Source: a virus
Length of the DNA stretch: 64,000 nt
IMG/VR virus record: IMGVR_UViG_3300037140_000126
Location: 1-64,000 of that record
Strand: one strand, 5' to 3'
Of the stretch, positions 1-48,568 are shown piece by piece. The notes beneath the pieces are model-generated. The model worked only from the letters and a program-made list of their open reading frames with translations. It did no database searches and had not been told where the DNA came from. A program made the translations under genes and the position numbers. Every line of letters starts with the position of its first letter. Within the stretch, counting starts at the first letter, position 1.

Positions 1-305
1 TCAAAGGAACTTCTTCTAATCGTGGACCATACCGAACCATTACTTGTACAAAATACAACTGTCGAACCACCACCCACCGTGCAGTCTAATAGAGACGTTC
101 CATCTGTTATCGTCGCAATTCCCCCCTTAACGGTGCTGGCGCTCGGCAGTCCGGACACAGTTGTTGGACTCAGGACAACTGGTTTAGTAAATGATTTAGT
201 TGCTGTGATCGTCTGATTATCCTCAACCGTAACTGTCGTGTGCGTCTGCGCAAACACACTCACCGCTGAAAGAGTCAATATAAAAAGCAAAATTAGTTTC
301 TTCAT
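1..305 (-). CDS. secreted fibre-like protein, truncated at window edge (not in ORF track)
   Basis: Hand translation from ATG 305: MKKLILLFILTLSAVSVFAQTHTTVTVEDNQTITATKSF...TTVSGLPSAS...DCTVGGGSTVVFCTSNGSVW, open to base 1. Shares segments with 3133..3738 and 11944..12534. Confidence 0.8.
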   Translation of the reverse strand, partial: MKKLILLFILTLSAVSVFAQTHTTVTVEDNQTITATKSFTKPVVLSPTTVSGLPSASTVKGGIATITDGTSLLDCTVGGGSTVVFCTSNGSVWSTIRRSSF

Positions 306-312
306 AAACCCC

Positions 313-672
313 CTACACTATAAATTCAGACCGCTGTCTGCGTCTTATCGTGCCCACCATGATGTTCGTGCTACCAGATACAGGCGGAGAAAACGGTATT
401 TGTTGCAGGACACCGCTCGTAAGAACTACCAACTGAAACGAAAATCCCCCCGGACTTTCCAATATGATCGAAGTGGAATAATTTCCGTTCGTGACTGGAT
501 TTTGTTGCAAGATTCCGCCTGTGCTAATCGTAACCGCCCAGGAGTTGCCGCCCGCATCATTCAAAGTCAGCGTAGTCGGCTGGCCACCGCTCGGCGTCTG
601 CGTAAGAATCCCTTGGTCGGTTACGCCAACAAGCCAGATTCCTGAACTACTGTCTGCAAGAAAAATATTCAT
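313..672 (-). CDS. small protein of three ~32-aa beta-rich repeats, probable virion/adaptor protein
   Basis: IFLADSSSGIWLVGVTDQGILT module, also present inside the hub protein and at the tailspike N-terminus. Confidence 0.7.
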   Translation of the reverse strand: MNIFLADSSSGIWLVGVTDQGILTQTPSGGQPTTLTLNDAGGNSWAVTISTGGILQQNPVTNGNYSTSIILESPGGFSFQLVVLTSGVLQQIPFSPPVSGSTNIMVGTIRRRQRSEFIV

Positions 673-703
673 AGATTACGGCACCATCTGCTGCGCTTAG
701 GCG

Positions 704-3136
704 TCATGGTAGTCCGAACCACACTGCGTTGTTGCCTGGAGTTAGATACGCTCCGATGTTCCATTTGCCACTCTGAGCACCTGTCAGCACTCTATTCGGC
801 CACACTGATACAGGAAGCAAAGCGTTCTGATATGTCGAGCCTAGATTGACTCCTGAATTGATGGCCGGAGAACCGGATTGCAGAGTAAGAACATCACTTG
901 CTGGGGTCGTAAACTTTGGATCACCGTCAATCCCATGTACTTCTTGCGCCGCCACGGCTGCGTGGAATGCTACACGGCTCCCGTAAAACGAGTTGTACCA
1001 ATCTACGCAGGGGGACGCCCCGTTGCAGAAATAATCATTGTAATCAAACACGTTCGAGGTTGGATCACTGTGGGCTGTGTTATCGGCCCAAACAAGATCG
1101 CCGCTGCTGGTCACGTTGGCAAAGATGTTATTCTTGACCAATGTGCTGACTGTCGTTCCGCCATCACTCGCCCAGCCCAGTTGAAGAGCAATGCCACCAG
1201 TCGGATTGTAGAGAGTATTCCCATAAACGACATTAGAAGCTGACGACTCGCTCACGTTAGCCCGAATCCAAATAACCTTGTTAATTGACGTAGCCTGTCG
1301 TCCGTTCACGACGTTGTACTCAATCACATTGTTAGATGCCGACTCCATAATGATTCCGTATTGTGGTGTTGCACTTGCGCCGGTTGAAAACTTATTGTAC
1401 CGAATCGTGTCATGCGCACAGGAGTCGTTTGTTCCATTACCCGACTCATCGCACCACACCCCAAATTTGTTTGCCGTTGCTGTGCTTACGTTGTAGGCAA
1501 TATCCAGATACCAGCTATCCTCGCTCATTAGTGCTGCTCCAGAGGAAACTGAAGAGGTCCCGCTAATCGTGTTGTAGCGAAGGTAAGACCCTGTGTTCGC
1601 GTGGGTGCTCGCGTGACTGAATTTTATTCCTCCCGTGTAATTGTTGCTCGCAAGATCGCTGAGCGTGATGGTGTTAGAAAAAATGTGAACTGAATCTCCC
1701 CAAAGAACTTGGATTCCGCGCCAATCATTCCCGGTGTCCCCGCCAACATCGGAAATAGTGTTGCTGTCAGCGTCGAAGCCATCGAAATGCGTTGCAGCGG
1801 ACCCGATAGCGCCAATTCCGTAATGCCAAGTTCCGTTCAGGGTATTCCCGGTGATTGTCCAATTCACAGAGGTTCCCGAGCTGCGCGTTGGAAAGATCAA
1901 AGCGATGTTTGTGTAACTGCACTGCAATCCGCTGATCGTGATGTTTGTTTTGTCTACAGAGGTGATCGCATAGTTCCTCTGAGCGACTTCGAAGGTATGA
2001 CTCCCAGTTGTGGGGTTGCTACTTCCAGCATAGGTATAGAATCTGGAGTTGACGGAATCCCACCACCACTCTGTCACCGAGGCATCAGAATTAAGAGTAG
2101 TCTTGCTGGTCGCAACCGTCATGCGCGAGCCGTCTCGCCAGCCGATGTACGGAGTCGCGGATTCAGATGTGTACCAGAGATTTGTTCCGCTTACCGTGCT
2201 TAAAGATATGTCGTCCAGATAGTATGAACCTGCCCAAGAGTCCATTTTTATTTCGTCTACCGTCATCGAATTTGTGGCTAGTCCTGTAATTGTTTGCTCG
2301 GTGGTTCCATCAACCTTTAGAACACACCCACCCGCCGCCGGGTCGGTCACCATCACTAAATCAACTTCATGCCAAACATCGAGAACGGCGGCGACGTTAT
2401 ACGCGGAGGTAGATGTCCCGACAACCGAATTGTTATAGCAGGTAGCTGTGACTTGCAGATTGCTGCTGGCGTAGGTAAAGTGCAGTTGAGCAACCGTATT
2501 CAATGCTGCATTATACAGCCATAGCTGCGAATCTGGATTGGTTGTCGAATGGTTCGCCACCCACAACGTCCATGTAGCGTTACTGAGACTTCCGATAGAT
2601 GTCTTCGTTAGAGCAGAATCCTTATTTGACGCCGCCTCCAATACGGAGTACGTCCCCGAATGTGTAAGGGCAGTTGAAACTGTCCATCCAGCAGGAGCGC
2701 CGTTGTTGGTTGCCACCCATTTGGACAAGTCTCCGGTTTCAAATCCATCCGAAAATATGACACTACTACTAAAGTCCTGCGTCCATGCTCCTGTCGTATT
2801 AGCAGACGCCGATCCAAGAATTTTAGGTAGTGCCCCGCTACCGTAAGCTCCGTAGGTTATGACGTTCCCCACGGTGCCAGTCACCCCTACCGTTTCCATA
2901 TCACGCCACGTATCTCCACGATTCAGCAAGATTGAGTCACCAGCATTTATCGTTGTAGACGTGCAGACTGATGAGCAACCTGCCATTCCAGGTGCAAATG
3001 CCCATGACGCCCCTGTTGAAGTTCCAGCGGCAGCGTTGCTCCCAGCATTTGAGACGTAGTATGTCGTAGCCGAAGCCGGAAGCGCGAAGACCAAGAGCGA
3101 GAAAATAATTATAAATTGTCTCATCGTTGTTCTCAT
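704..3136 (-). CDS. secreted right-handed beta-helix (pectin lyase-like) protein with lectin-like insert, C-terminus NNAVWFGLP
   Basis: Signal peptide (MRQFIIIFSLLVFALPASA), TTYYVSNAGSN start, many ITGNT/IYNN-type rungs, FSDGFETGDLSKW insert, GDPKF...LQSGSPAINSG near the end. Start placed at the ATGA overlap at 3136. Confidence 0.75.
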   Translation of the reverse strand: MRTTMRQFIIIFSLLVFALPASATTYYVSNAGSNAAAGTSTGASWAFAPGMAGCSSVCTSTTINAGDSILLNRGDTWRDMETVGVTGTVGNVITYGAYGSGALPKILGSASANTTGAWTQDFSSSVIFSDGFETGDLSKWVATNNGAPAGWTVSTALTHSGTYSVLEAASNKDSALTKTSIGSLSNATWTLWVANHSTTNPDSQLWLYNAALNTVAQLHFTYASSNLQVTATCYNNSVVGTSTSAYNVAAVLDVWHEVDLVMVTDPAAGGCVLKVDGTTEQTITGLATNSMTVDEIKMDSWAGSYYLDDISLSTVSGTNLWYTSESATPYIGWRDGSRMTVATSKTTLNSDASVTEWWWDSVNSRFYTYAGSSNPTTGSHTFEVAQRNYAITSVDKTNITISGLQCSYTNIALIFPTRSSGTSVNWTITGNTLNGTWHYGIGAIGSAATHFDGFDADSNTISDVGGDTGNDWRGIQVLWGDSVHIFSNTITLSDLASNNYTGGIKFSHASTHANTGSYLRYNTISGTSSVSSGAALMSEDSWYLDIAYNVSTATANKFGVWCDESGNGTNDSCAHDTIRYNKFSTGASATPQYGIIMESASNNVIEYNVVNGRQATSINKVIWIRANVSESSASNVVYGNTLYNPTGGIALQLGWASDGGTTVSTLVKNNIFANVTSSGDLVWADNTAHSDPTSNVFDYNDYFCNGASPCVDWYNSFYGSRVAFHAAVAAQEVHGIDGDPKFTTPASDVLTLQSGSPAINSGVNLGSTYQNALLPVSVWPNRVLTGAQSGKWNIGAYLTPGNNAVWFGLP

Positions 3137-3738
3137 TGGAAATCCTGACTCGGCACGCATTTCGCGGCGGTGCCGTTAAGATAGCAGGAAATTATATCGT
3201 TGGTCGCCAGCGCACCAGTTACACCCGTACCTACCGTAATAGTTGGTGTGCTGCCACCGGGCCACTCCACGACTCCCCCACCAGATGTGCTAATCATGCC
3301 GTCATAGGTTGAGCTAGTGGACTGGTATATAGTGAGTTGAAGTTTGAACGTACCAGTGCTCGGCTGCGTGAAGGTCAGAGCGCATGTATCACCCGCCGTG
3401 AGCGTAACATTTTGAATGTTCCCGTTCGCGGGTGCAATAGTCGCCGCCGTCGTGCAGGTGCCGTTTGAGTATTCGGCGTTTGTAGCTAACTGCGAAGTAT
3501 TAATCAGTCCAAAACTCTTCGTTCCAGTGATCGTCTGAACATCCTCTAGGGTGACATCCGTGTGCTGCGACTGTGGAGGATCGGGAGCAGCAACATCATC
3601 AACGATTAAGTCAGGCACTAGACCATGAGGCATATCCAAGCTGAAACTCATCTTTGCCACACACATCGGTGCTTGCGCTAGAAGAACAAGAAAGACGATC
3701 AAGAACATTCTGAATTTCGGAGTTATGATATGTCGCAT
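3133..3738 (-). CDS. signal-peptide protein with phage tail-fibre-type C-terminal beta domain (adaptor 1)
   Basis: NGNIQNVTLTAGDT...WPGGSTPTIT...DIISCYLNGT resembles a common phage fibre domain. Paralog of 11944..12534. Start at the TAATG overlap. Confidence 0.7.
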   Translation of the reverse strand: MRHIITPKFRMFLIVFLVLLAQAPMCVAKMSFSLDMPHGLVPDLIVDDVAAPDPPQSQHTDVTLEDVQTITGTKSFGLINTSQLATNAEYSNGTCTTAATIAPANGNIQNVTLTAGDTCALTFTQPSTGTFKLQLTIYQSTSSTYDGMISTSGGGVVEWPGGSTPTITVGTGVTGALATNDIISCYLNGTAAKCVPSQDFQ

Positions 3739-5072
3739 TATTTCCCCTGTCGGATGCACTGTATTGCTTGAATCACTTGCTCCAACGCGTCATCAAGCCC
3801 AATACCACTGTTCCTAAATAATCGGAGCGATGGATAAAACGGAGAATCACAACGGTTCAGTAAAAATTTCCAATCGGAGAGGCCAGGAATCATCACCCAA
3901 CATTTCTTACCTAGTGCACCTGCTAAATGAGCAACTCCGGTATCTACGGTAACGACGAGATCAAGATGTTCAATGATGCTTGCCGTGTCCTTCCAATTAC
4001 GAATGATTGGTGCCCATATGTTTTCAGTGGGTGCGTCCATCCCAAATTGTAAATTTACCCAACGAACACAATCAACAGCCAACAATCGGGTGGCTTGACT
4101 GAGATCAAGCGAGCGGTGTCTGCGTGGGTCAAGTCTCTCAGCACCCATCCAGCAAATTCCAACTGCTGGCTTTGATTTGTTAAACCACGCACTAGAATGA
4201 TGCATTTTAATATAGGGACCCAGTTTACTATCCTGTTCCGTATTCTCTACCGTTGCACCACACCGTTTTGCAAGCCCCATAATAGGAGCGAAATAGTCAT
4301 ACTGCTTTACACCATCTTTCTGAATATTTAGATCAACTTCTGGAAGCTCATCAGTGTCCGCTCCTTCATGGGTTGGTAGAATTTCATCAATCCACGGGTG
4401 CCTGTGCAGCAGTGGCACCATCACATCAGGGCACGCATACGTAATATGTGCACCCATCGCTTTCAAATTGCGAAACCAGCGCATGAACATCAGGTTGTCG
4501 CCAAAGCCGCCACCCTGCAAAACCAAGATGCGTTTACCTTGTAGTGGCTCACCCTGCCACTGTGGAATATATTGTGCGAGCCCTTCTTCCCAGAGCTTGC
4601 CCCAACAGTATTTTTCAAACAGTGGCCACGCTTCCTGCCAATCGCCTTGCCGCAGCCGCCCTTGGGCGTACAACAATCCAACAAATTGGTTCGTAGGATC
4701 GAGTTGATTCCCTTCGCTGGAAAGTTTCAATGCTTCGTCAAATCGTCCGAAGGTTTCAAGGATAACAGCAAGATTCAACAGTGTGTAGGCAGATCGGTTT
4801 AGCTCGACAGCTTTGCGGGCGCAGCATAAACCGCCCTCAGTATCTCCGGCAATATGCAGCGCAGTACCCAAGTGCATCCAAGAAAGCCAGTCAGCAGGTG
4901 TCTTACCTTTAGCACGGTCCACAAGCTCAAAGGCGTCAGCCCTCGTCATGATATAGCCAACACCAACATCAGGCACCAGTTTTGGATCATCATTCCAAGG
5001 CATCGCCCCAGAAGTAATATGAATTGGGCGTCCGTCGTTTAGTTCCAATGCATTTCCCATTAAGTCACCCAT
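3738..5072 (-). CDS. TPR-repeat + family 9 (heptosyltransferase-like) glycosyltransferase
   Basis: TPR-like helices, then ILVLQGGGFGDNLMF, VGICWMG, WVNLQFG, IIEHLDLVVTVDTGVAHLAGALGK, W...SPFYPSLRLFR. Start placed at MGDLMG. Confidence 0.85.
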   Translation of the reverse strand: MGDLMGNALELNDGRPIHITSGAMPWNDDPKLVPDVGVGYIMTRADAFELVDRAKGKTPADWLSWMHLGTALHIAGDTEGGLCCARKAVELNRSAYTLLNLAVILETFGRFDEALKLSSEGNQLDPTNQFVGLLYAQGRLRQGDWQEAWPLFEKYCWGKLWEEGLAQYIPQWQGEPLQGKRILVLQGGGFGDNLMFMRWFRNLKAMGAHITYACPDVMVPLLHRHPWIDEILPTHEGADTDELPEVDLNIQKDGVKQYDYFAPIMGLAKRCGATVENTEQDSKLGPYIKMHHSSAWFNKSKPAVGICWMGAERLDPRRHRSLDLSQATRLLAVDCVRWVNLQFGMDAPTENIWAPIIRNWKDTASIIEHLDLVVTVDTGVAHLAGALGKKCWVMIPGLSDWKFLLNRCDSPFYPSLRLFRNSGIGLDDALEQVIQAIQCIRQGK

Positions 5073-5259
5073 CCCCGCCGAAAGCACTACGCATGTCGGC
5101 AGCCTTGCGTAGCTGAGTACGTTTTTCTGCCATCGCCCACTCAAATATTTTGCAGTTGCGTTCAGCCTCTTGACCGAAAAACCTAGCAATTTCCAAGCCG
5201 CCTTCTTTTGCGACCCAATAATCGTTTCCTGATTCCTCGGGACAGAATGTAATCATCAT
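5065..5259 (-). CDS. hypothetical protein (64 aa)
   Basis: Fills the gap between the two GT genes and overlaps both neighbours. Confidence 0.55.
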   Translation of the reverse strand: MMITFCPEESGNDYWVAKEGGLEIARFFGQEAERNCKIFEWAMAEKRTQLRKAADMRSAFGGDG

Positions 5260-5948
5260 GACAGCACCTCACCCTTCAATGGATCGCCAACACGCAACGC
5301 ATCAATCTTCGGCATGTCTTGCACCCAGGATTTACCAGAATGATGTATCACATGACTCTTAAAACTCAGCAGTGTGGCATATCCAGCGTTGTTCAACTCG
5401 TATGACGCATACGTGTCCGAACGTACATGAATCGTATCGTTTCTTGTTTCGTCCAGATACAGTCCAGGTGTTCCACGCCGTAACGCCATCATCGAGAAAG
5501 CCTGCATCAAACAGAGCCACGCATGGCCAGTAACACCGTGCTTCCCGGATTCACACCAGCGCTGCGGCGCTTCTTCTGACCACACAGACCCAACGAGTGA
5601 CACCTTCAAGCCTTTCTTTTTCGCTTCAGCCCACACGCTATACAATTCTTCAAGCCATCCGGGATTGACCTCGCAATCCGAATTCAGCAAGACAGCTTCA
5701 TGTGTCCGCACTAAGCGCAATCCCAAGTTTGCGGCTCGCGTCCACCACCGCTGTTTTTCAGAACGGATATATAAGCTCGACGGGAAGGCCTGTAAAATAG
5801 CAAGCATGTAAGCAGTTGTCGCAGGTTCACTCGCGTCATCGACAAAGATAATTCGATTCAGGTCAGGCGTGTGCGCCAGAACACTAGCTACACACTTATG
5901 CAAGTAAGAAAGTGCATCGTGCACGGGGATGACTATATCGACGGGCAT
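5256..5948 (-). CDS. glycosyltransferase family 2
   Basis: DIVIPVHD, IIFVDDAS, AANLGLR, VLLNSDCEV (DxD-like), VIHHSGKS. Confidence 0.88.
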   Translation of the reverse strand: MPVDIVIPVHDALSYLHKCVASVLAHTPDLNRIIFVDDASEPATTAYMLAILQAFPSSLYIRSEKQRWWTRAANLGLRLVRTHEAVLLNSDCEVNPGWLEELYSVWAEAKKKGLKVSLVGSVWSEEAPQRWCESGKHGVTGHAWLCLMQAFSMMALRRGTPGLYLDETRNDTIHVRSDTYASYELNNAGYATLLSFKSHVIHHSGKSWVQDMPKIDALRVGDPLKGEVLS

Positions 5949-5955
5949 TACTCCC

Positions 5956-6900
5956 CTATTTCATTCCCGTACAGCTTGCCGTTGTCGTCCCGCTCGTTAC
6001 CGATATCGAATATGGCCCTGTTGGCAGGTTAACAACGCCTGTACTAGCCGAAGGGCAGGAAATTGTCATAGACGGCGGTGGAACAGTTCCAGCAACAAAC
6101 ACGACATCCCGGAAATAATTGGAACTAAGGTAATTGCCTGTCGGGAACTTCCCGGGCCCGCCATATGTTCCATTATTGCCAACCACAGACTTTAGATTGC
6201 CACTTACGATCTGAGATGAGAATCCCGTATTCGAGTCAACATAATAGGTCGCCCCTGTATTGACACTCACCGTATAAGTTGTAGAGGCCAAAATGGGAAG
6301 TGCTGTTGCGAGTGCCTGTTGTTGCCAGCCCGAAGCGGTTTCCCCGGTGAAGTTCACTGTTGCCAGCGACACTCCACTGCTAGACCAGATGTGTCCGGCG
6401 TGCGTCCCTGTTTCATTAGACGCCTTCCAGAATCGAATCGCGGTAATTTGACCAGCCGTGTTGCTCTGGAACTTAGTCCCTAGCTCATAGTTCACGTTCG
6501 TTCCGTCGCTGTTATTGTTCGCTACTGGAGTTTGCGTCGTTAACAAAGTTTGGTTAGCCTGTGGAGTAACTCCACCGGGAATCGTTACAGGTGCAGCCGT
6601 CACCGCAGCACTAAAAATTCCCTGAGAATCTGTATTTAAAATAGAGTAGGTAATTGTTTGCCCAGCCGTAACTGCGCTGTCCACATAACTAAGGGTAGTA
6701 GGCGGGACGGTCGCTATAACGGTGTTATTTCTACTGATTTGGGTCGATGCAACCGTTTCCCCAGCCGATTGCGATGGTTGTGTCCATCCGATAGTTACCG
6801 AATGCTGTGCCGAGGAATTAAACCCAAAAGCAAGGATACATCCCAATCCGACAAGTATGCGCAACGTGATACTGTGATAATCCAACATTTTTTGCATCAT
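5956..6900 (-). CDS. secreted FN3-like + DUF4082 domain protein
   Basis: Signal peptide, fibronectin-like W...Y...L.Y.D pattern, then YELGTKFQS...GQITAIRFWK...GWQQQAL...NYFRDVVF typical of DUF4082. Confidence 0.8.
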   Translation of the reverse strand: MMQKMLDYHSITLRILVGLGCILAFGFNSSAQHSVTIGWTQPSQSAGETVASTQISRNNTVIATVPPTTLSYVDSAVTAGQTITYSILNTDSQGIFSAAVTAAPVTIPGGVTPQANQTLLTTQTPVANNNSDGTNVNYELGTKFQSNTAGQITAIRFWKASNETGTHAGHIWSSSGVSLATVNFTGETASGWQQQALATALPILASTTYTVSVNTGATYYVDSNTGFSSQIVSGNLKSVVGNNGTYGGPGKFPTGNYLSSNYFRDVVFVAGTVPPPSMTISCPSASTGVVNLPTGPYSISVTSGTTTASCTGMK

Positions 6901-7958
6901 ATTTTCCTCGCAATCACTAGAGAAGAATATCTTGGACATCCTGGTGTTGATTCATTGTCCAGCTTCGTCATCAGAGTTTCACAACCCAGCTTACACAGCA
7001 TCCCAGTTAGTTCTTCGATTCGGAAACCAGGATGCTTGTGATCGGTATTCCCGCCGTGGTAAAAATCAGGGTGTGGCACGTAGAGACCGATAGTGCCTCC
7101 GGGCCTCAGCACACGCACCCATTCGGTGAGCACTGCATTTGTGTCTTCGAAGTCTTCCAAGGTATGACTCGACCAGAGCCAGTCAAACTTTTCGTTTTCA
7201 AACGGGAGCTTGTCCGCTTCGCCACGATGGGTCACCTCCGGATAATCTGATCTATCAAACGCTACACAGTACCTAGTCAGTGGATCACGCGAGCAGCCTA
7301 CGTCAATTCCATTCAAACTGGCCTTGAAATAGGGCATCACCATTGCACGGACTTTACTCGTTTCAAGTGCATTGGACTGCTTCTCTGCTACAGCTACACC
7401 AGTTTTCTTGTCGAGCCGCACGTAGGACGCCGCTATATCCGTGGCGGTCTTAAAGAAAGATTCATACAGCGCCATCATTTTCTGATCTTCACCGACATCA
7501 TCAAATACAAGATAACCACCAGGAGCAACCAAAGGCCAACAATTTTCCAGGTCAGAATTTGCGGAAGTAGGGGACTCAAAGTTGTGGTCACCGTCTACCA
7601 AGACAAGATCGAATGGCTCACGCTTGTCCAAGCTCGGAATTGTCTTCGCGGAGTCTCCGTCAAGATACATGACCTCGCCGTTCAGATAACCCATAGCCTT
7701 CAGCATTCGTTCAACATGCTTGTGAGAGCGATCAAATTGCGTGCCATTGTTGTTTGCACCAAAGTAGCTTTCGTGCCAAATGTCTGAGATTACAATGCGG
7801 TTCAGGTTTTTCTTACAGCCAGCGAGCACGCGCAGAAGACTGTCACAGTAGCGCGTGCCCACTTCAAGATAACTGGATGGCTGTTTTTCGAGGGCGATCT
7901 GGAGCAATGCGTCCCAAGCGGCGTATTCAAAGCCAACATCTTTTAGGATTAACCCCAT
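6897..7958 (-). CDS. tandem SAM-dependent methyltransferase (Methyltransf_24-like + Methyltransf_11-like)
   Basis: YLEVGT...FDLVLVDGDH...GGYLVFDD, followed by GIDVGCS...FDWLWSSHTLED...RVLRPGG. Confidence 0.85.
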   Translation of the reverse strand: MGLILKDVGFEYAAWDALLQIALEKQPSSYLEVGTRYCDSLLRVLAGCKKNLNRIVISDIWHESYFGANNNGTQFDRSHKHVERMLKAMGYLNGEVMYLDGDSAKTIPSLDKREPFDLVLVDGDHNFESPTSANSDLENCWPLVAPGGYLVFDDVGEDQKMMALYESFFKTATDIAASYVRLDKKTGVAVAEKQSNALETSKVRAMVMPYFKASLNGIDVGCSRDPLTRYCVAFDRSDYPEVTHRGEADKLPFENEKFDWLWSSHTLEDFEDTNAVLTEWVRVLRPGGTIGLYVPHPDFYHGGNTDHKHPGFRIEELTGMLCKLGCETLMTKLDNESTPGCPRYSSLVIARKI

Positions 7959-7974
7959 AGCTCACCTATACCTT

Positions 7975-8595
7975 TTAGAAATGCTCAAACAGGCCGAGTT
8001 TCAATTCAATCTCTGGATGACCTGCGGCCTTCGCTGCGCTATTAAAGGCCTTTTTGAATTGCCTGACTGTACGATGTACGGGTGTAAACGGGACAGTTAG
8101 GACACCAACCTTAAATTGCCCGTTCAGTTTTGCTTGCATGCGGGACTGCACCGCTGCGGGAAGTTGTTTGATAAACCCAGCAATTGTTTCGAATATGATT
8201 TTTCCTAAGCTCAATACAACATTGATGATCGGATTCGTCACTTGCAATTGTGCGAATAGGCTTTGAAGGTTTCCAACAATCAAGTTGAACACCTCTTCAA
8301 GCTTTGCAAGCGTGCCTGCCGGTGGCGGATTCACTGATCCATAGGCTTTCGCGTCTGCGATTAAATCCGTAAACGCCGTGTCGATTACAGGAATCAGCAA
8401 AGAGATTGCCGGACTAACAAGCCCAACACCTTGTAAGAGGCTGATAATACCGTCAAACGCTGATTGCCCTACTGGAGCCCAATTCTCAATATTCTGTGCT
8501 AAATTGCAACCTTCTAGGGTAAGCGAAACACCACTCGCTAGTACAAGCAATCCTGTACCAGCGTGCTTTGTAAACATTCTTCGTGAAAGCACCAT
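7975..8595 (-). CDS. putative Tat-exported lipoprotein
   Basis: SRRMF twin-arginine motif, hydrophobic stretch and lipobox-like LEGC. GGAGG lies 7 nt before ATG 8595. Confidence 0.6.
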   Translation of the reverse strand: MVLSRRMFTKHAGTGLLVLASGVSLTLEGCNLAQNIENWAPVGQSAFDGIISLLQGVGLVSPAISLLIPVIDTAFTDLIADAKAYGSVNPPPAGTLAKLEEVFNLIVGNLQSLFAQLQVTNPIINVVLSLGKIIFETIAGFIKQLPAAVQSRMQAKLNGQFKVGVLTVPFTPVHRTVRQFKKAFNSAAKAAGHPEIELKLGLFEHF

Positions 8596-8706
8596 GAACA
8601 CACCTCCGTAGATTATGCTAAAGCTGTAACAAACTCAAATACACTTCCATGGGCATAGTGGACTGCTTCGGCAGACAAGCAGCCCACTACAGACAGCAGG
8701 TCAGAA

Positions 8707-9171
8707 TTATTCGGTATGCGAGATGGTCGCATCCACTGCGACTGCAACCGAACCTGTCTGTGTTGAATCAAGTACCATCTGGCCGTTTGGAGCAGTCGCG
8801 CCAGTGATGCCCTTTGCTTCCTCTTCAATCGTAGCGAACCAAAGACCTGTTCCCCTCGTGTTAAACGCAAGCTGCACCGAGGGCACAGCACTACGTGATC
8901 CAGCAGTTGGCAGCGTGTTAGCAACAGCATTCGCTGAAGGCTGATCGTTCTGTGCTGGCATCGGCACAATCGCACCGCCAGCGGTTAATAGAGTGGTTGT
9001 ACGGACCAAACGCAAACGAATCTGTACGTCAGTCGCGTTCGTGTTCGGCCCGGCCTGCAGACGCCTGATTTGGGCGCGAAGCCCAGCAATCGCAACGAGA
9101 CTCAGTAGAGCGACGTTGGTACCGGCTGACGAGGACGTGCTTTGTTCCGAAACTGTATCGAACCAATACAT
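8707..9171 (-). CDS. hypothetical beta-rich protein, possibly structural
   Basis: 154-aa ORF in the operon with Thr/Ala/Gly-rich beta-strand pattern. Confidence 0.6.
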   Translation of the reverse strand: MYWFDTVSEQSTSSSAGTNVALLSLVAIAGLRAQIRRLQAGPNTNATDVQIRLRLVRTTTLLTAGGAIVPMPAQNDQPSANAVANTLPTAGSRSAVPSVQLAFNTRGTGLWFATIEEEAKGITGATAPNGQMVLDSTQTGSVAVAVDATISHTE

Positions 9172-9177
9172 AAGGTT

Positions 9178-9471
9178 TCACTCCTTCGGTTTTGAAATAA
9201 GTTTCGCCTCGGGAATGATTCCGTAGGCGTCCAGCACACTCTGCGGAACCGGTGTCCCGCCCAGCATCATCATGTCAGCATCACACGCATCACAGGTAAC
9301 AACAATATGTTCAGGGGCAATAAACTTACTCGAATCCAAACTACAAAATCCGAGAGGTTTGCCGCACAAGAAACAATAAGTTTTCTCGGAGGCCAGCATA
9401 GGATGTGAGGTCTTCCCAAAATAGCCTTTCAATCGGCTATCGGCATCTTTGTAAAGCTTACCTTCACTCAC
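9178..9471 (-). CDS. hypothetical Zn-binding protein
   Basis: CFLC...CDAC pairs. Confidence 0.6.
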   Translation of the reverse strand: MSEGKLYKDADSRLKGYFGKTSHPMLASEKTYCFLCGKPLGFCSLDSSKFIAPEHIVVTCDACDADMMMLGGTPVPQSVLDAYGIIPEAKLISKPKE

Positions 9472-9662
9472 TCGCCACCGTCCTTGTAGCAGTTGATTCC
9501 ATTACCTAGCACATCAATTTCTACTTGATTGAACAAACTGCTGAGAATCCCTTTCAGCGTTGGGTCAGTTTCACGTTCTGCCAGCCTGCGAAAGCGCTCC
9601 TGCAAATTCTCCAAATCGTACAGTGCTACGCGAACGGAATCTTTCCTGTGTTTCATGGCCAT
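9468..9662 (-). CDS. hypothetical protein (64 aa)
   Basis: In-operon ORF overlapping the next gene. Confidence 0.5.
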   Translation of the reverse strand: MAMKHRKDSVRVALYDLENLQERFRRLAERETDPTLKGILSSLFNQVEIDVLGNGINCYKDGGE

Positions 9663-9712
9663 ATCAGTTCACTCCGAATACTTGCACTTCATCATCTACC
9701 ACACTGAGAGCA

Positions 9713-11947
9713 TCATGGCAGTCCGAACCAAAGCGCATTGCTTGCGCTTGATGGATAAGTCGGGATCACGTTCGCGTTGCCGCCAGCCCACGAACTGATT
9801 TGCACATTTGCTAAGGTTGGCGTGTAGATGTTCATTCCTGGGTATCCGCTGGTCAGATAGTTGTTGTAGTCTTCGACCTGTAGAATTAAAAAGCCATTCT
9901 GGAAGGCCGATAGAATCGGGAATCCATCACTGCCTGTAGTCACTTGCAACCGAAACTTATCTCCGATTTGAGAGGTGACCTGGGCGGCGGGGCCAATTAG
10001 ATGAGTTACGCCCGCGACGATTGTGGCTATTTGAAAGAACGTATCCGCCGTTCCCGTAGGCCCCGAGTTCGATATTATGTATTCGCTGTTAGCTCCCGTT
10101 TGCGTGCGGACAGCAGGACCGGCATACGATGCGGAGCCAAGCGTCGTAATGGTGATTTCTGAATACTGGTTAGCCGAAAAGGCAGCCCCTGTATAGGCCA
10201 TGGTGCTAGATGTGCTGGTTGCGGTGGCCTCAACGAGATTTCCAGAAACTATTTGCAGCTTTGTAGAGCCGGTTGGTGTCACCCAATTAGACGATAGATT
10301 TCCAGCGCCGCTAGTGAACGCATCAGCGGCGATCTGTGCTGCGGCATCTTCGTTAGTCGTCACAATCTGAGCAATAGAAGCCGGGCCGATAGCCAGCTCT
10401 ACCTGAGCGACTACTGGATTTACTGCATCCCCAACCCCTACATCCATTAAAAAATTCGCAACGCCCCCAATGTCCGTGATGTATGACGCAAACACTTGTC
10501 CGGTGGTGGCGTTCAATGACTCGAACATCTGCGTGTTGTGGACTGAGTGAGTAGGGTTGGTCCAGTTAATGAAGTCTGTGGTTTGATACCGTACAATTTC
10601 TGTCGGGTCCAAATCAGGGACGAGCGAGTTGCCTCTCCCCGGCTGGTTAGTCGCAGCCCACATATAGTACGTGCTGCCTACTGGCGTGACGCAAAACGGC
10701 AAAGTATTCGCGAGCACAGGGTTGCTTCCGGATTTCACCCAGTTGATGCCATCGGTAGAAGTCACGAGACCTGTGGAATACAACCCGGCCGTAGCGTTAG
10801 CGGCGCTGGTGCCTGCATACAGACCATACCAAGTTCCCGCTATAATTGCCGTAACCTGAATGCCGTACACGGAAGCGGCATCCCAAGTTCCGCTGGTGCC
10901 CAACCCGATGACTTGAGAAGGGCTTTGTAGCGTCCAAGTTATTCCGTCTGAACCGGGACTTCCTCCACCGAGCGCCCCCGTGAAAACAGCGATGTTGCCT
11001 GAACCAGATGCGCCATCCGCCTGAGCGTACAAATAGTAAGTGCTTCCGTTCTTAAAAACTGTAGCGTTCATGTATCCGGCAATGGCGGCAGACGAGGCAC
11101 GAGTCCATGTTTTCAAGTCTGTTGACTCTGCATAGTAGACACCGTTGCCGCTCGCCGGGCGACTGGTTAGCCACGCCTTATAGACGGTGCCAGATAAAAG
11201 CTGCGCGTTCCCTTCATGTAAAATACTGGTAGAAGTCTGAACCCCCTGCCCTGCGGGACTTCCACTCAAATCCGTTGCAATAGCCGGAATAACGACGCCT
11301 TGCTTCTGCCAGATGCCGTCTTGCTGAATGGCGGAATATCCCCGCCAGGAAAGAACCTGCGAATGAGATTCGCTTACATTGTTCGAGTTTTGCCGATATC
11401 CAGGGGATCCAGAGGAATAGGTGGAGTCGTAAAATACGAAAACGCGAGCGTTGTTTTGGTAAATGGTGATGCTCGATCCAGCCATAGAAAGCGCCCAAAC
11501 ATCTGCGGGCGCAAAAGTTAAGCCTGTAACTGTACTTCCCAACTGCACGATAGAAAGCCCTGGGTCTATCCGATACATTAGAATAGTGCCGTTGGTGATT
11601 TCGGCCAGATACCCGGTACCAGCTGCGTCAGTCCAGCGATCAATCAGTTGAAGATGAGTCCCAGGTTCACTGGTTAAATTCACAGAAACTTCTGAGATTT
11701 GATCTGACGGCCAAGTGAGCCCGCTCCAATACTGAGCGCCCCATGTGTTTAGAACTAATCCGCCCTCGGATACATTGGGGCTGCCAGACACCACTACAGA
11801 TTTGAGAGGGCCGAGGCTGCTAATCGCAGACCATCCTGCAGCCATGCTGCCGGAAGCGAAATTATCCGAAGCGAGAAGCTGGTTGTTTGCGGCGCGCAGC
11901 GGCAGCGCCAGCAGGAACAGAAACGCGAATAGAATTAGCCGTCTCAT
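9713..11947 (-). CDS. secreted beta-propeller glycoside hydrolase-like protein (GH32/43/130-type) flanked by duplicated lectin-like domains, C-terminus SNALWFGLP
   Basis: Signal peptide MRRLILFAFLFLLALPLRAA, YAESTDLKTWTR and TSTDGINWVK Asp-box-like blades, similar N- and C-terminal domains. Start at the ATGA overlap. Confidence 0.7.
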   Translation of the reverse strand: MRRLILFAFLFLLALPLRAANNQLLASDNFASGSMAAGWSAISSLGPLKSVVVSGSPNVSEGGLVLNTWGAQYWSGLTWPSDQISEVSVNLTSEPGTHLQLIDRWTDAAGTGYLAEITNGTILMYRIDPGLSIVQLGSTVTGLTFAPADVWALSMAGSSITIYQNNARVFVFYDSTYSSGSPGYRQNSNNVSESHSQVLSWRGYSAIQQDGIWQKQGVVIPAIATDLSGSPAGQGVQTSTSILHEGNAQLLSGTVYKAWLTSRPASGNGVYYAESTDLKTWTRASSAAIAGYMNATVFKNGSTYYLYAQADGASGSGNIAVFTGALGGGSPGSDGITWTLQSPSQVIGLGTSGTWDAASVYGIQVTAIIAGTWYGLYAGTSAANATAGLYSTGLVTSTDGINWVKSGSNPVLANTLPFCVTPVGSTYYMWAATNQPGRGNSLVPDLDPTEIVRYQTTDFINWTNPTHSVHNTQMFESLNATTGQVFASYITDIGGVANFLMDVGVGDAVNPVVAQVELAIGPASIAQIVTTNEDAAAQIAADAFTSGAGNLSSNWVTPTGSTKLQIVSGNLVEATATSTSSTMAYTGAAFSANQYSEITITTLGSASYAGPAVRTQTGANSEYIISNSGPTGTADTFFQIATIVAGVTHLIGPAAQVTSQIGDKFRLQVTTGSDGFPILSAFQNGFLILQVEDYNNYLTSGYPGMNIYTPTLANVQISSWAGGNANVIPTYPSSASNALWFGLP

Positions 11948-12534
11948 TGGAAGTTCTGACTCGCTACGCAGTAAGTGTTCGTGCCATCGAGATAGCAACT
12001 AATGAAATCAACCGCTCCGGTCGTGGCCGTGATTACGGGGACGGTGCCACCAGGCCATTTGCCGCCAGAGATCAGACCGTTATAGCTCACGCTCGCGGAC
12101 TGAATGATCTTGAGTTGAAGTTTGAACGTACCTGAACTTGGTTGCGTGAAGGTTAGTGCACATGTATCACCAGCCGTAAGAGTGATCTTCTGCACGTTCC
12201 CGTTGGCGGGAGCGATGGTGGCTGCGGTCGTGCAGGTGCCGTTTGAGTATTCGGTGTTCGTGACCAGCATTGGAAAGGGAGAGGCGGGATTGAAACCGGT
12301 AACTGCCCATACAGAGCCGTTTGATTTACAGTGGACCAGATTTGTTCCACCGCCAATTGTGCAGTCGGTCGCACTCAAACCATCGAGAACGATAATAACC
12401 TTGCCACTCGCAAGGCTAGCAGCTGGCAGGCCACTCACAGTCGTTTGTGCCGTAAACGTAAGCGTCTGCGCGAATGAATTTGTTGTAATACAAAACAACA
12501 ACATCAGCATCAAACTGAGTAGAAACGTTCTCAC
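11944..12534 (-). CDS. signal-peptide protein with phage tail-fibre-type domains (adaptor 2)
   Basis: Paralog of 3133..3738 (EYSNGTCTTAATIAPANGN...TLTAGDTCALTFTQPS identical apart from the gap) and of 1..305. Confidence 0.7.
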   Translation of the reverse strand: MRTFLLSLMLMLLFCITTNSFAQTLTFTAQTTVSGLPAASLASGKVIIVLDGLSATDCTIGGGTNLVHCKSNGSVWAVTGFNPASPFPMLVTNTEYSNGTCTTAATIAPANGNVQKITLTAGDTCALTFTQPSSGTFKLQLKIIQSASVSYNGLISGGKWPGGTVPVITATTGAVDFISCYLDGTNTYCVASQNFQ

Positions 12535-13328
12535 TTAACCTCCACGGCGGACTGTAACGCAAGCGCGTCATGTATAAACGCAGTCGCCTGCCCTGCCGCA
12601 TTCATTGGATCAATCGAAGCAAGAGGAAATTCTTTGCCATACGGGCAACCGAATATTTTACCGAAACGCCCCTGTGCCCTGCGGTTCGGATGCGGTTCAT
12701 ACGTGATCGTCTGTACACCAAGGCCCATAGCAATCACCCAACACGCCGAGCGGCAACCAAAGTAAACAACCGCTTGCTTGATAACAGCAGCGGCGAACGA
12801 GAATGGTAAATCTGTTACGTCCTCCAGATTTACAGCTTCACCAAGACTCAGTGCCATATACCCCAAGAATTTACTCTTTTCCTCCGCATACAGTTCGTTG
12901 AATCCATAAGCAACGACAGGCCGCTCATCGAAGCGTATTTCCACGTCGTCCATTTTCAGGAACGGGACAACCGGCTGTTGCAGTACAAGCTCCTGCTGAT
13001 AAGCAATGAAATCGGCAAGTGGGAGTGCAACAGCACCAATCCCAGGGTGGGCTTTGTAAGTAAGATTATAAACATGCTCATAGCCGTATATCTCAACAGG
13101 CGCTTCCCACGGTTGATCGCCATGCGGGCTGCCCCAGCATATCCACTCTGGAATGACAAACGCCTTGTCGATATAGTCTTGAGCTTCTAGCAGCGGTAGC
13201 AGACTTTCATACTGCGGCATCACAGCGAAATCCACAGACCCATGGCGCTTGCTGAGTTCACGCACGGTGGGCAACGACCAAAGTATGTCGCCAATCTTCC
13301 CCGAAAATGTGGCTAATACGTTGCTCAT
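12531..13328 (-). CDS. glycosyltransferase family 9-like
   Basis: GKIGDILWSLPTVREL, LLEAQDYIDK, AAAVIKQAVVYFGCRSACWVIAMGLGV. Confidence 0.75.
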   Translation of the reverse strand: MSNVLATFSGKIGDILWSLPTVRELSKRHGSVDFAVMPQYESLLPLLEAQDYIDKAFVIPEWICWGSPHGDQPWEAPVEIYGYEHVYNLTYKAHPGIGAVALPLADFIAYQQELVLQQPVVPFLKMDDVEIRFDERPVVAYGFNELYAEEKSKFLGYMALSLGEAVNLEDVTDLPFSFAAAVIKQAVVYFGCRSACWVIAMGLGVQTITYEPHPNRRAQGRFGKIFGCPYGKEFPLASIDPMNAAGQATAFIHDALALQSAVEVK

Positions 13329-13753
13329 GCGCTGACCGCCATCGGCAGTTTGTAAAACCTGATTCTATCGAACTGTACTGTAAAAACCAGTTCGGCCGTC
13401 CATGAGGGCGGGTCAATCGAAACATCATAATAGCTACTCGCCCCGTCTGTCAGGTCACGGTCTGTTCCAGCCAACACAGCAGTAGCGATATGCAACACTG
13501 CGAGCCACTGCACGTTTTCATCCTCAGGCCAGCGTGATTCGTTCGGGTCGCCATGATCGAAACAGGAAAATTGCCAAGGTTTCAAAACCACAGTTTGGAC
13601 AGACACACCCCACCATCTTGGAAGCTTTACACGGTTATTGACAACATGCGCCACGCCAGCCATTGCGGCAACACTTTGATCGTCCGCTTCCCGCCATGTA
13701 CATAGTGCGAGCAATTCTTGGTCTGACAACTCGGAATAGGGTTGTGCAATCAT
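13325..13753 (-). CDS. endolysin, SleB/Hydrolase_2 cell wall hydrolase
   Basis: LALCTWREA, VAHVVNNRV, VVLKPWQFSCF, DLTDGASSYY, RIRFY. Confidence 0.88.
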   Translation of the reverse strand: MIAQPYSELSDQELLALCTWREADDQSVAAMAGVAHVVNNRVKLPRWWGVSVQTVVLKPWQFSCFDHGDPNESRWPEDENVQWLAVLHIATAVLAGTDRDLTDGASSYYDVSIDPPSWTAELVFTVQFDRIRFYKLPMAVSA

Positions 13754-14161
13754 TCAGGTATTATCTTTATTCCTCTCACTATCGGAACCTTCTTTTGCGC
13801 CTTCTAACCGAGCAGTCCGCTGCCTGCTTTCCGACAGTTCCGTTGTTCTAGTCACCAGCTTTTCATCCTTCCCACTGAGAATACCATCCACCTTAGCAGC
13901 AGTATCTGTGCCGATTGTATGAAGCACATTGAACTGCCGTGTTGCTTCTTCACGGTCCAGCGCCCTTTCGCGTCTGCTCTCTTTTTTGTCTGAAATCCTA
14001 AAAAAGATAAGGCCGATTCCAGTGATCGCCCCAGGTATCATCGCAATGAGAGCGACCTTCTCGGTCGGGTCCATCACATACAGAAGAGCCGCACCCAATC
14101 CAAATATCCAGGTCGCTGTTTTCAGCGCTGCATAGTGATGCAGTGTCATGAAAGCCTTCAT
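13754..14161 (-). CDS. membrane protein, holin/antiholin candidate
   Basis: Two hydrophobic segments then a charged coiled-coil tail, immediately upstream of the endolysin. Confidence 0.55.
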   Translation of the reverse strand: MKAFMTLHHYAALKTATWIFGLGAALLYVMDPTEKVALIAMIPGAITGIGLIFFRISDKKESRRERALDREEATRQFNVLHTIGTDTAAKVDGILSGKDEKLVTRTTELSESRQRTARLEGAKEGSDSERNKDNT

Positions 14162-14165
14162 ATTT

Positions 14166-14582
14166 TCAGTACGACCGAACTTCTGGCGTAACGATTTTCC
14201 CTTCTGCCGTTACCTGCGCCGGAAGAGTAGGCCCTGACGCATGCGAAGATGTTGTCATCCCCAGGCGATTGTAAATCACCTGAAACCAGCTCTCCTGCAT
14301 GACGTACTGCCCTAAAACGTGCCACATTGTCACGACAAGCACGGCGGCTGATGGAATAGCCAAATCCAAATGCCGATAACCGTTTGCATCGAATTTAGGA
14401 TCCCAAACATAACCAATTCCGCCATGAATCAGAAAGGCCCCAGCAACACTGATGATCCGCTTGAAGACTATCTGACCTTTCTGAATGAGTACGGGAAACC
14501 AGGGTGCGTTCTTCAACTGCTGGAAACCCCACACAAACATGGCTGTTGAACTAAATTGTGTTACGACCAGATTAGCGTCCAT
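14166..14582 (-). CDS. membrane protein, holin candidate
   Basis: Two to three hydrophobic segments, next to the endolysin. Confidence 0.55.
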   Translation of the reverse strand: MDANLVVTQFSSTAMFVWGFQQLKNAPWFPVLIQKGQIVFKRIISVAGAFLIHGGIGYVWDPKFDANGYRHLDLAIPSAAVLVVTMWHVLGQYVMQESWFQVIYNRLGMTTSSHASGPTLPAQVTAEGKIVTPEVRSY

Positions 14583-14594
14583 AAATCCCCTTGA

Positions 14595-14831
14595 TTACGT
14601 TGTAGTGCTGCCTGCACCGCCGAGCCATCTACCCACCCGTTTCCAGAAACCAGATTTTTCGGTCTCGGTAACATAAGGCGCAGGTGGCTCATAGGGCGAG
14701 TGCTCAATCTCCAACGGTGACAGCTCAACCTCAACAGGCTCGTAGCGTACTTTTGCCCGGTGATGCTTCAGGGGCACGGCTTCCCTTGCAACTTTTATTT
14801 TTGCTTTCTTGTGAGATTTACGTTTCACCAC
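14595..14831 (-). CDS. hypothetical basic protein
   Basis: Lys-rich N-terminus and C-terminal amphipathic FWKRVGRWLGG. Confidence 0.55.
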   Translation of the reverse strand: MVKRKSHKKAKIKVAREAVPLKHHRAKVRYEPVEVELSPLEIEHSPYEPPAPYVTETEKSGFWKRVGRWLGGAGSTTT

Positions 14832-46386: not shown

Positions 46387-47274
46387 CTATGGGATCACCG
46401 CACATGCCTCCGTCGAATAGCCACCCTCAGATGCGCTTGATACCGATGTCACGACATAACAATAAGTCTGTCCATTGCTCACTGCATTGTCTGTATACGC
46501 GAGGCCAGCAATAATAGGAGTGTTGAGTAAAGTGTAAGGTCCTCCGGATTGCGTACCTCGATATACGTTGTATCCCAAAACACCTGTGGAGCTAGACGCA
46601 ACCCACGTAAGCACAACTGAATGCACTACAGGGGCCGTTGTACCGGTGCCTACAAGTGAAACAAGCTGCGGACTGCCCGAAGCATTGTCGGCGATACTTA
46701 ACGTACCTGAGTAACTGGTCACTGCAACTGGAGTAAATGTAATTGTAATGTTACAGGTAGCGCCTGCATCGAGTGTCGAGCCACAAGTGCTCGACTTGGC
46801 AAAAGTCGCAGAACCGGTAAGCGTAATACTACTAAACGTCAATTGGGCATTGCCGGAATTAGCCACAACGATAGCCAGATTTCCACTCGTAGTGGTTTGC
46901 ACACTACCGAAGTTCAAAGGGTTCCGAATCGACCTAGAAGGTGTAGTCGTAACCACGGGTGCAGTGCTCCCGGATGGCCCGCAGTAAGTCCACGTTCCAG
47001 CCGTGCTTCCTATACAGACATAGAAACCAGCCACTCCGCCCGATCCGGGGAGTACAAGGTTGTAATTGCTAACCACCGGCGGCGCGGTCAAGATTGTAGA
47101 AGAGTTGCTATTCGTATCCAACAAAGCGATTCCTTGGTTAAATGTCTGCACCTGCTGAAAGTAGTTCGTCAGTTCAAGCCCGGCAGTTTCTCTCGCTTGT
47201 GAAACCGTATCACGTGCAACGATCAGCACCAGCATGGCTAAAAATAAAAGGAAACTTAGTATCTTATTTCTCAT
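46387..47274 (-). CDS. signal-peptide protein with ASH (choice-of-anchor D) and FN3 domains
   Basis: LNFGSVQ...VVANSGNAQLTFSSI...C.ITITFTP...LSIADNASGSPQLVSLVGTG, then LTWVAS...YNVYRG...YTD...YVVTSV. Confidence 0.8.
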   Translation of the reverse strand: MRNKILSFLLFLAMLVLIVARDTVSQARETAGLELTNYFQQVQTFNQGIALLDTNSNSSTILTAPPVVSNYNLVLPGSGGVAGFYVCIGSTAGTWTYCGPSGSTAPVVTTTPSRSIRNPLNFGSVQTTTSGNLAIVVANSGNAQLTFSSITLTGSATFAKSSTCGSTLDAGATCNITITFTPVAVTSYSGTLSIADNASGSPQLVSLVGTGTTAPVVHSVVLTWVASSSTGVLGYNVYRGTQSGGPYTLLNTPIIAGLAYTDNAVSNGQTYCYVVTSVSSASEGGYSTEACAVIP

Positions 47275-47933: not shown

Positions 47934-47937
47934 TGTT

Positions 47938-48567: not shown

Positions 48568-48568
48568 G

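Follow-up and report, generated by a model that had tools for sequence, protein, structure and literature searches.

The stretch of DNA analyzed here (the window) comprises bases 1 to 64,000 of a 124,954-bp virus record in the IMG/VR database, IMGVR_UViG_3300037140_000126, and carries two copies of a two-gene unit, in which a small exported-type protein (A1 or A2) is encoded directly upstream of a large passenger protein (P1 or P2). The first 243 bases of the window (1 to 243) are repeated, with one mismatch, at the end of the record (124712 to 124954), so the record can be taken as circular (or terminally redundant), with a length of about 124.7 kb (124,711 bp). Its source is a large uncultured tailed phage from soil.

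Both units lie on the minus strand, which holds almost all genes of the window. In the first of them, A1 (3133 to 3759) is 208 amino acids (aa) long if read from the GTG codon at 3759 but more likely starts at the ATG codon at 3738, which gives a protein of about 201 aa. It is followed by P1 (704 to 3136), an 810-aa protein whose actual start, within an open reading frame (ORF) spanning 704 to 3160, is the ATG at 3136 (MRTTMRQF..). In the second unit, A2 (11944 to 12534; 196 aa) is followed by P2 (9713 to 11947; 744 aa), which begins with MRRLILF.. at 11947 within an ORF spanning 9713 to 11998. An earlier note on this DNA, made by inspection, had described these genes as a duplicated cassette of an adaptor and a secreted passenger, and all features and positions that it listed for the unit are present in the sequence. 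A1 and A2 resemble each other in their last ~118 residues, with 67% identity (E = 6e-50), and differ in their N-terminal parts. All four proteins display the N-terminal pattern of a signal peptide, with basic residues, a hydrophobic stretch, and a small-x-small site. The unit is actually present about three times, as a third paralogue, A3 (465 aa), is found at the origin of the circular record; it starts at position 305 and runs over the origin on the minus strand, so that its first 101 codons fall within the window (1 to 305).

The junction between the A and P genes is the same 11-nucleotide (nt) sequence in both units, TTCCAATGAGA (TCTCATTGGAA on the plus strand), located at 3131 to 3141 and 11942 to 11952. 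In each case, the A gene ends with F-Q-stop (TGA), which overlaps the Met-Arg start of the P gene in the tetranucleotide ATGA, and this stop/start overlap implies translational coupling of A and P. Two exact repeats in the A genes, of 22 nt (3333 and 12111) and 28 nt (3449 and 12227), are both part of a longer, 191-nt repeat with 79% identity. The passengers, by contrast, are unrelated, and the best BLASTP segment between P1 and P2 is their 17-residue tail (E = 0.035). Both proteins end with NA[V/L]WFGLP, encoded with the TGA stop codon at 704 to 730 (N-A-V-W-F-G-L-P in P1) and 9713 to 9739 (N-A-L-W-F-G-L-P in P2). The 18-mers that start at 704 and 9713 differ by a single base, and the tail codons as a whole differ by three synonymous changes and one conservative change (Val/Leu). 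Chance cannot explain such shared ends, with 7 of 8 residues identical in proteins of ~750 to 810 aa, together with paralogous upstream genes that have the same overlap.

Protein families of the two partners

The A proteins combine a signal peptide with dissimilar N-terminal modules and, in A1 and A2, the same C-terminal domain (hereafter, the A domain). A1 contains the module DVTLEDVQTITGTKSF and an A domain that ends with SQDFQ. In A2, the signal peptide (..NSFA|QTL) is followed by the module TTVSGLP..DCTIGGG..CKSNGSVW and by the A domain (residues 89 to 196), which ends with SQNFQ; this protein also shows a weak match to phrog_19200, annotated as "virion structural protein". A3 unites, behind a signal peptide, the two N-terminal modules of which A1 and A2 have one each, and it also has a Gly-rich stretch and a different C-terminal domain. 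The C-terminal ~108 residues are common to 83 proteins with 65 to 82% identity, whose N-terminal parts range from none at all to more than 1,400 residues. An N-terminal hydrophobic region is found in 59 of the 76 family members that are long enough to judge, and exactly four Cys residues are located within the A domain in 74 of the 83 members, with none in two signal-less members of marine type. On the basis of this combination of a signal peptide and four cysteines, the A proteins would be expected to be exported and disulfide bonded.

In at least 35 of the 59 A homologues with signal peptides (counted with a simple pattern; ~42 by eye), the predicted cleavage site is directly followed by Gln, as in ..FAQ, ..HAQ, and ..GQ. 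The same is true of A2 and A3 (12457 to 12534 and 238 to 305, respectively) and of a DUF4082 protein encoded in the window. A "Q-rule" has been described for the substrates of signal peptidase I in Bacteroidetes (PMC10367356). The Gln pattern seen here resembles that rule, and the host could belong to Bacteroidota or Acidobacteriota.

The A family is common in viral contigs and in soil and peat metagenome contigs; in a set of 185,579 bacterial and archaeal species, each represented by one genome, its sole match was a 2.7-kb contig in a metagenome-assembled genome of Solibacteraceae. A tblastn search of 50,697 GenBank phage records yielded no match to P2 and a single weak match to the A domain, in an unannotated protein of Phage DSL-LC06 (L081) with glycosyltransferases encoded just upstream. 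Sequence searches of PDB with P1, P2, and the A profile returned nothing useful. The AlphaFold2 model of the A domain of A2 (predicted local distance difference test [pLDDT], 82.6) is an eight-strand β-sandwich. Among 48,161 representative chains compared with this model, seven stand out with Z scores of 5.7 to 7.6, the next one having a score of 3.3. These top matches include the C-terminal domains of the Acinetobacter phage Solidus tailspike and the Pseudomonas phage Pa223 capsid spike, residues ~55 to 177 of TSP4 from phage CBA120, a Klebsiella phage baseplate protein, and modules of the secreted mucinases CpaA and StcE. The lists of structural matches contain no XD2 or XD3 domain. The superposition with TSP4 residues 55 to 177 (XD1) covers 94 residues with a Z score of 6.1 to 6.6 and a root mean square deviation of 3.5 to 4.6, although Z scores below 8 may mean a common arrangement only. 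In TSP4, residues ~80 to 178 make up the XD1 domain, for which T4 gp9 and gp10, CpaA, and StcE were given as structural neighbors (PMC8825819). Because the top matches of the A domain coincide with this set of neighbors, its model appears to resemble the XD1-type module of phage fiber, spike, and baseplate proteins.

Neither passenger matches a Pfam family at E ≤ 0.01. P1 has a signal peptide (..PASA|TTYYV), a predicted right-handed β-helix with a LamG-like insert, and the tail ..GNNAVWFGLP. Its ESM Atlas neighbors carry the domains Beta_helix, NosD, and GH141_M (score, 0.94), and its relatives in loci L035 and L044 score above the Pfam cutoff for Beta_helix, so P1 is predicted to be a β-helix protein. 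The P1 family includes 3,956 homologues at E ≤ 1e-3, both with and without signal peptides, which share a conserved W(N/E)IGAY followed by short variable tails. A few of these tails are of the W-F type: NPFWFATP, DPFWFSIP, NALWFATP, and NALWMFQPF.

P2 consists of a signal peptide (..PLRA|ANNQ), a LamG-like domain, a five-bladed propeller, β-sandwiches, and a flexible tail, ..ASNALWFGLP. In its AlphaFold2 model (pLDDT, 89; predicted template modeling score, 0.88), only residues 1 to 17 and 736 to 744 fall below 50. The closest solved structures are those of the endo-levanase BT1760 and other GH32/GH43 enzymes (Foldseek E values of 8e-11 to 1e-8), and the model has the five-bladed propeller of these families (clans GH-J and GH-F). 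Several P2 homologues have weak precomputed matches to PF04616 or PF00251, and the family alignment contains invariant Asp and Glu columns. Judging by the model, P2 is a GH32/43-like propeller protein.

More than 120 homologues of P2 were found, with 40 to 54% identity. A signal peptide is present in only 7 of 120, and 101 of the 120 start directly with MANNQLL.. (MANNQLLASDNF..), which matches the residue after the predicted cleavage site of P2. The last folded domain of P2 is common to the signal-less homologues. The bodies of these proteins end with ..GGNANVIP.Y, followed by a short tail from a limited set of classes that includes QVGAFLVGP, LLLLGVG, GDLGPGYDFKFRL, NSRTPGTYGPGE, ..RGLRH, ..TRGARSK, and others. 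ALAVGGS and LIIVSK are also among the recurring tail classes of the P2 family (P0084 to P0203) and the P1 family (P0204 to P0353). By the look of these recurring classes, phage spikes may have a general set of connector peptides at their C termini that can be exchanged for one another.

Recurrence of the pair in other phages

The two-gene unit constitutes a genuine module and is found again in other uncultured phages, where the gene that follows an A-type gene nearly always encodes a protein with a signal peptide. Its passengers are swappable, as had been suggested from the window itself: behind the same kind of A gene are found β-helix proteins (loci L035, L044, and L069), a GH32/43-like propeller (L056), a LamG protein (L047), and proteins of unassigned folds (L008 and L010). 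Complete pairs coupled through ATGA number five, in four phages; these are the two in the window and those in L035, L044, and L010/L051. All five passengers have an end of the W[F/M] type, namely, WFGLP twice, WFGQTP, WFSIP, and WMFNPY. W-type C-terminal tails were also seen on four further proteins (P0227, P0331, P0291, and P0194). Of 14 proteins whose genes immediately follow an A gene, 12 have two or more aromatic residues among the last 8, compared with 18% of 512 background ORFs (P = 8e-8, for cases that are not fully independent).

A profile of the P2 family identified 13 viral loci. In L056 alone is an A-like gene located directly upstream; the P2 homologue in that locus has a signal peptide, and those at the other loci have the MANN-type start. 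P2 of the window is a second case of a signal peptide together with an upstream A gene. Most P2 relatives have neither. In the small related phages (L008, L044, and L056), the A-P pair is located within the block of structural genes.

More distant relatives are found in marine podophages, whose fiber-like proteins contain a signal-less and cysteine-less relative of the A domain at the C terminus and the motif ..GSALTFxExDxNF at the N terminus. In ~14 of 18 such loci, they are followed, 0 to 12 nt downstream, by variable proteins that share an N-terminal peptide, MPLGAFRLNTLA, MPLGAFRLN.., MPLVFGRSIL, or MALGTQRMFG. This arrangement, an A-domain relative and a variable next protein, is seen in L012, L014 to L019, L021, L023 to L025, L030, and L032 to L034. 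The rule of an A-type domain followed by a variable protein with a conserved terminal peptide therefore holds over a deep divergence. The FGLP of the window tails is the reverse of the PLGF in the marine N termini (MPLGF/MPLGAF); this may be a coincidence, and we do not treat it as evidence.

Scans of IMG/VR with back-translated patterns returned 2 matches to NAxWFGLP-stop, 12 to NAxWF[GAS]xP-stop, and none to GGI[ND]PFWF, and all these matches are chance ones, in frames of 8 to 52 codons. Four viral contigs (L082, L088, L089, and L090) share a conserved DNA segment, picked out by the pattern scan alone, that reads ..TNP[V/E]NALWFGNP-stop in a short frame; most probably, a conserved gene is here read in a wrong frame.

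Interpretation of the shared tail

Given the mainly synonymous differences between the tail codons of P1 and P2, there has been selection on the tail peptide, and recent copying does not explain the similarity. The view that the tail behaves like a selected short linear motif is supported by these differences, by its flexibility in the AlphaFold2 model, and by the W[F/M] tails in 5 of 5 complete coupled passengers. We favor, with a probability slightly under one half (about 0.45), the reading that the units are Sec-exported swappable fiber-enzyme pairs, with the tail serving as a docking peptide. The A protein would be a small Sec-exported, disulfide-bonded protein that combines a variable N-terminal part, drawn from modules of the tail fiber type, with a conserved C-terminal β-sandwich of the T4 gp9/gp10 XD1 type. 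The overlap of the A stop with the P start would ensure that A and the large glycan-active P are made together. Passengers of unrelated folds would be exchanged behind the same A domain, each keeping a short, flexible, aromatic tail as its means of docking to the A domain or to a single common partner; the simplest mode would be the addition of a strand to the β-sheet. In this way, a variety of enzymes could probably be attached to the same partner outside the cytoplasm. The complex might then bind and cut polysaccharides of the host envelope or matrix from the periplasm or the cell surface, both during infection and at lysis, which would help the release of progeny and destroy receptors. Such a target is suggested by the proximity of endolysin genes (in the window, L051, and L045), by the glycan-active folds, and by the interleaved genes for glycosyltransferases and methyltransferases. 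Export is supported by the predicted signal peptides and by the four conserved cysteines that are absent from the signal-less marine relatives. We infer that the proteins are actually exported and that A binds P, as well as the substrate and the timing of action.

Several points weigh against this reading. The signal peptides were called by a hydropathy heuristic and by eye rather than by a trained predictor, and the sample of complete pairs is small (5 pairs on 4 contigs) and partly related by descent. The pattern NAxWFG.P is found nowhere else in the returns of the IMG/VR scans, which may leave out the records of the phage's own genome. The A domains are 65 to 82% identical while the tails vary, and tails can serve other partners, since phages that lack an A gene have P2 family proteins with tails of other classes. 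Finally, the A domain, going by its model, resembles XD1 and not XD2 or XD3, for which docking has been established; of the XD domains, XD1 alone is not known to dock trimeric partners (PMC8825819).

The A-P pair shares some features with each of several described systems. The XD-domain adaptors of branched tailspikes and baseplates (T4 gp10, CBA120 TSP4 with TSP1 to TSP3, and G7C gp66 with gp63.1) use a small set of β-sandwich domains with which one carrier bears several unrelated glycan-cutting spikes. However, the partners there attach to trimeric XD2/XD3 jellyrolls by means of N-terminal head domains, and assembly takes place in the cytoplasm (PMC8825819). In the window, the modeled A domain resembles XD1 and has conserved cysteines, and the passengers share nothing but the C-terminal 8-residue tail. 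P1 and P2 have signal peptides where the head domains of those partners would be, and signal-peptide-like N termini on A1, A2, A3, P1, and P2 do not fit assembly in the cytoplasm.

In phages T2, T6, and S16, the fiber protein gp37 is followed by gp38, an exchangeable tip protein that is attached through its N-terminal part to the C-terminal end of the fiber, with no export involved. The A-P units have a similar gene order, in which a fiber-like gene is directly followed by, and coupled to, that of a second protein, but they carry export signals, and their proteins have no similarity to gp38 in sequence or fold.

Among exported proteins, WceF of Pantoea stewartii is a β-helix, glycan-modifying enzyme with a tailspike fold that acts on matrix polysaccharide, and it is reported as a single bacterial protein, with no fiber-derived partner, coupling, or shared tail (PMC7949094). 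In the nearest published report, signal-peptide genes of Porphyromonas phages were read as envelope modifiers; their products carry signal peptides of the Sec type, and Gln often follows the predicted site of cleavage, but neither a coupled adaptor-passenger pair nor a shared C-terminal tail on unrelated enzymes is described there (PMC10367356). Our literature searches found no paper on the A-P pair or the shared tail. The statement that the arrangement belongs to no described pathway is fair for the published literature, and the new element here is the coupled pair together with the shared tail.

Of the other explanations, the one that survives best treats the tail as a self-contained element of the passenger, unrelated to A, which would be merely a coexpressed exported lectin- or fiber-like protein. 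The tail could then anchor the passenger in the envelope or matrix, be recognized by a host factor for passage through the outer membrane, or close a passenger oligomer. A hydrophobic, aromatic tail on exported-type proteins is in line with this view, as are the many alternative short tail classes of the related families that have no A gene nearby and the presence of the A fold in glycan-associated modules of the secreted mucinases CpaA and StcE. However, the tail does not match any known C-terminal sorting signal, and a sorting role, which the earlier note had offered beside docking, found no support. The window tails share with the sorting signals a conserved extreme C terminus on exported proteins. 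In LPXTG and PEP-CTERM signals, the motif is followed by a transmembrane segment and a basic cluster, whereas WFGLP is the very end of P1 and P2. Neither passenger has the ~70- to 100-aa C-terminal domain (Por_Secre_tail type) of type IX secretion system substrates, and, in contrast to the β-signal of outer membrane proteins, the last residue is Pro rather than an aromatic one, with a propeller and sandwiches but no barrel in the P2 model. The tail class QVGAF.VGP also speaks against a sorting role, as some proteins that bear it have a signal peptide and others lack one. Wherever the context of a W[F/M] tail is known, its gene is strictly coupled to A through ATGA, which points to a shared function of the two genes, and we regard a self-contained tail as unlikely but not negligible.

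An assembly outside the cytoplasm is also conceivable, in which A and P would be virion parts for host recognition that, once exported, undergo oxidation and assembly in the periplasm and are added to the particles upon lysis or later, with A as a fiber and P as a distal enzyme plugged in by its tail. The origin of A from tail fiber modules, its domain of baseplate/spike type, the location of the A-P pair in the structural block of L008, L044, and L056, the signal-less P2 homologues within podophage tail modules, and the signal-peptide proteins inside the tail module of this very phage all fit such a scheme. However, the cassettes of the window neighbor genes for lysis and glycosyltransferases, at a distance of over 30 kb from the tail module, and no tailed phage is known to build any of its parts outside the cytoplasm. 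Virion parts of this kind thus appear quite improbable, and we would give only a slim chance to a host-recognition apparatus partly built there by way of Sec export, oxidation, plugging of the W-F tail into the XD1-like A domain, and attachment to particles in the periplasm or after lysis. Were such assembly real, the tail would be a universal connector with which soil phages swap depolymerases at will, and the pair in any case offers concrete proteins that bear on whether parts of tailed phages mature outside the cytoplasm.

It is very unlikely that A and P have no functional link, their adjacency and shared ends being leftovers of mosaic recombination, with the flanks as homology arms, or of recent gene conversion. 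The exact 22- and 28-nt blocks of the A genes and the near-identical 18-nt 3' ends could support recombination, and the cassettes are clearly mobile between phages. Yet the tail peptide is kept despite synonymous codon differences, diverged phages keep the peptide class with different DNA, and the ATGA overlap is retained in four phage contigs. A downstream overlapping gene (with the ATG in CCATGA) was rejected as a cause of the 3' conservation because the respective frames have only 12 and 6 codons.

The least probable view sees the passengers as auxiliary metabolic genes, i.e., secreted carbohydrate-active enzymes (a levanase-like protein and a β-helix lyase or hydrolase) with which the infected host would be nourished on soil polymers, a role that has been proposed for glycoside hydrolases of peat viruses; the GH32/GH43-like fold of P2 and the listing of glycoside hydrolases among auxiliary metabolic genes in work on soil viruses (PMC11924767) are compatible with it, but both passenger families are mostly signal-less phage proteins in virion modules, and a fiber-derived partner, coupling, and a shared tail would be unexpected for metabolic enzymes. 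This is also a caution against reading the glycoside hydrolases of peat viruses simply as carbon-cycling genes.

Returning to the favored reading of an exported fiber-enzyme pair, its interest lies in the comparison with modular receptor-binding complexes, through which phages change hosts and which, in the known examples, use N-terminal docking domains and are assembled in the cytoplasm. Here, the same modular logic seems to rely on Sec export and disulfide bonding, and the unrelated enzymes have a single element in common, a C-terminal peptide of ~8 residues. If the tail is indeed a docking peptide, it would represent a minimal portable tag for fixing arbitrary enzymes to a phage-derived carrier and would explain the sets of short variable C-terminal tails in the glycanase families of P1 and P2.

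Gene neighborhood of the cassettes

PHROG matches in the window include a DNA polymerase, helicases, an SbcCD-like nuclease, methyltransferases, and a tail protein. The A-P cassettes are located just downstream of the lysis genes, which comprise an endolysin (13325 to 13753) and two membrane proteins encoded upstream of it. One type of endolysin, a SleB-like cell wall hydrolase (phrog_938), is encoded close to the A-P module, only a few genes away, in three different phages, at 913 to 1359 in L051, at 6063 to 6479 in L045, and at 13325 to 13753 in the window.

The gene preceding A1 (3738 to 5189, minus strand) codes for a 483-aa protein that combines tetratricopeptide repeats (TPR) with a GT9-like glycosyltransferase (Pfam Glyco_transf_9, 3.4e-5, and TPR, with TPR matches in PDB), and it stops at the probable start of A1. 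The one preceding A2 (12531 to 13328, minus strand) codes for a 265-aa protein, and its stop codon overlaps the A2 start (GTGA). The N terminus of this protein looks GT9/GT-B-like by eye only, and searches of Pfam and PDB gave no match to it. In both units, the A start therefore meets, with or without overlap, the stop of a putative glycosyltransferase gene. The possibility that these two upstream genes are paralogues was rejected, as their products are 24% identical over 54 residues only (E = 0.2). Envelope-related genes in the same stretches (3738 to 8601 and 12531 to 13328) code for the TPR and GT9-like transferase, a GT2 transferase (Pfam, 3.5e-20), and a double methyltransferase, along with a secreted DUF4082 protein (5.6e-36) and a lipoprotein-like protein of 208 aa. 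It may be that sugars are added to the fibers or the passengers ahead of their export, in the way that heptosyltransferases modify autotransporter adhesins.

Scans of positions 1 to 14800 for promoters and terminators found no more sites than in shuffled sequence. A 119-aa repeat protein encoded between P1 and A3 (313 to 672, minus strand) may belong to the cassette block. Most of the 241-nt gap after P2 is occupied by an ORF of ~60 aa (9470 to 9652; MAMKHRKDSVRVALYDLENLQERF..), the end of which overlaps the start of a gene for a 97-aa Cys-rich protein (9178 to 9471). In the tail module, three adjacent genes (46387 to 48612) code for proteins of 295, 220, and 224 aa with signal-peptide-like starts, two of which terminate with ..SPQ.V.LSGTG.

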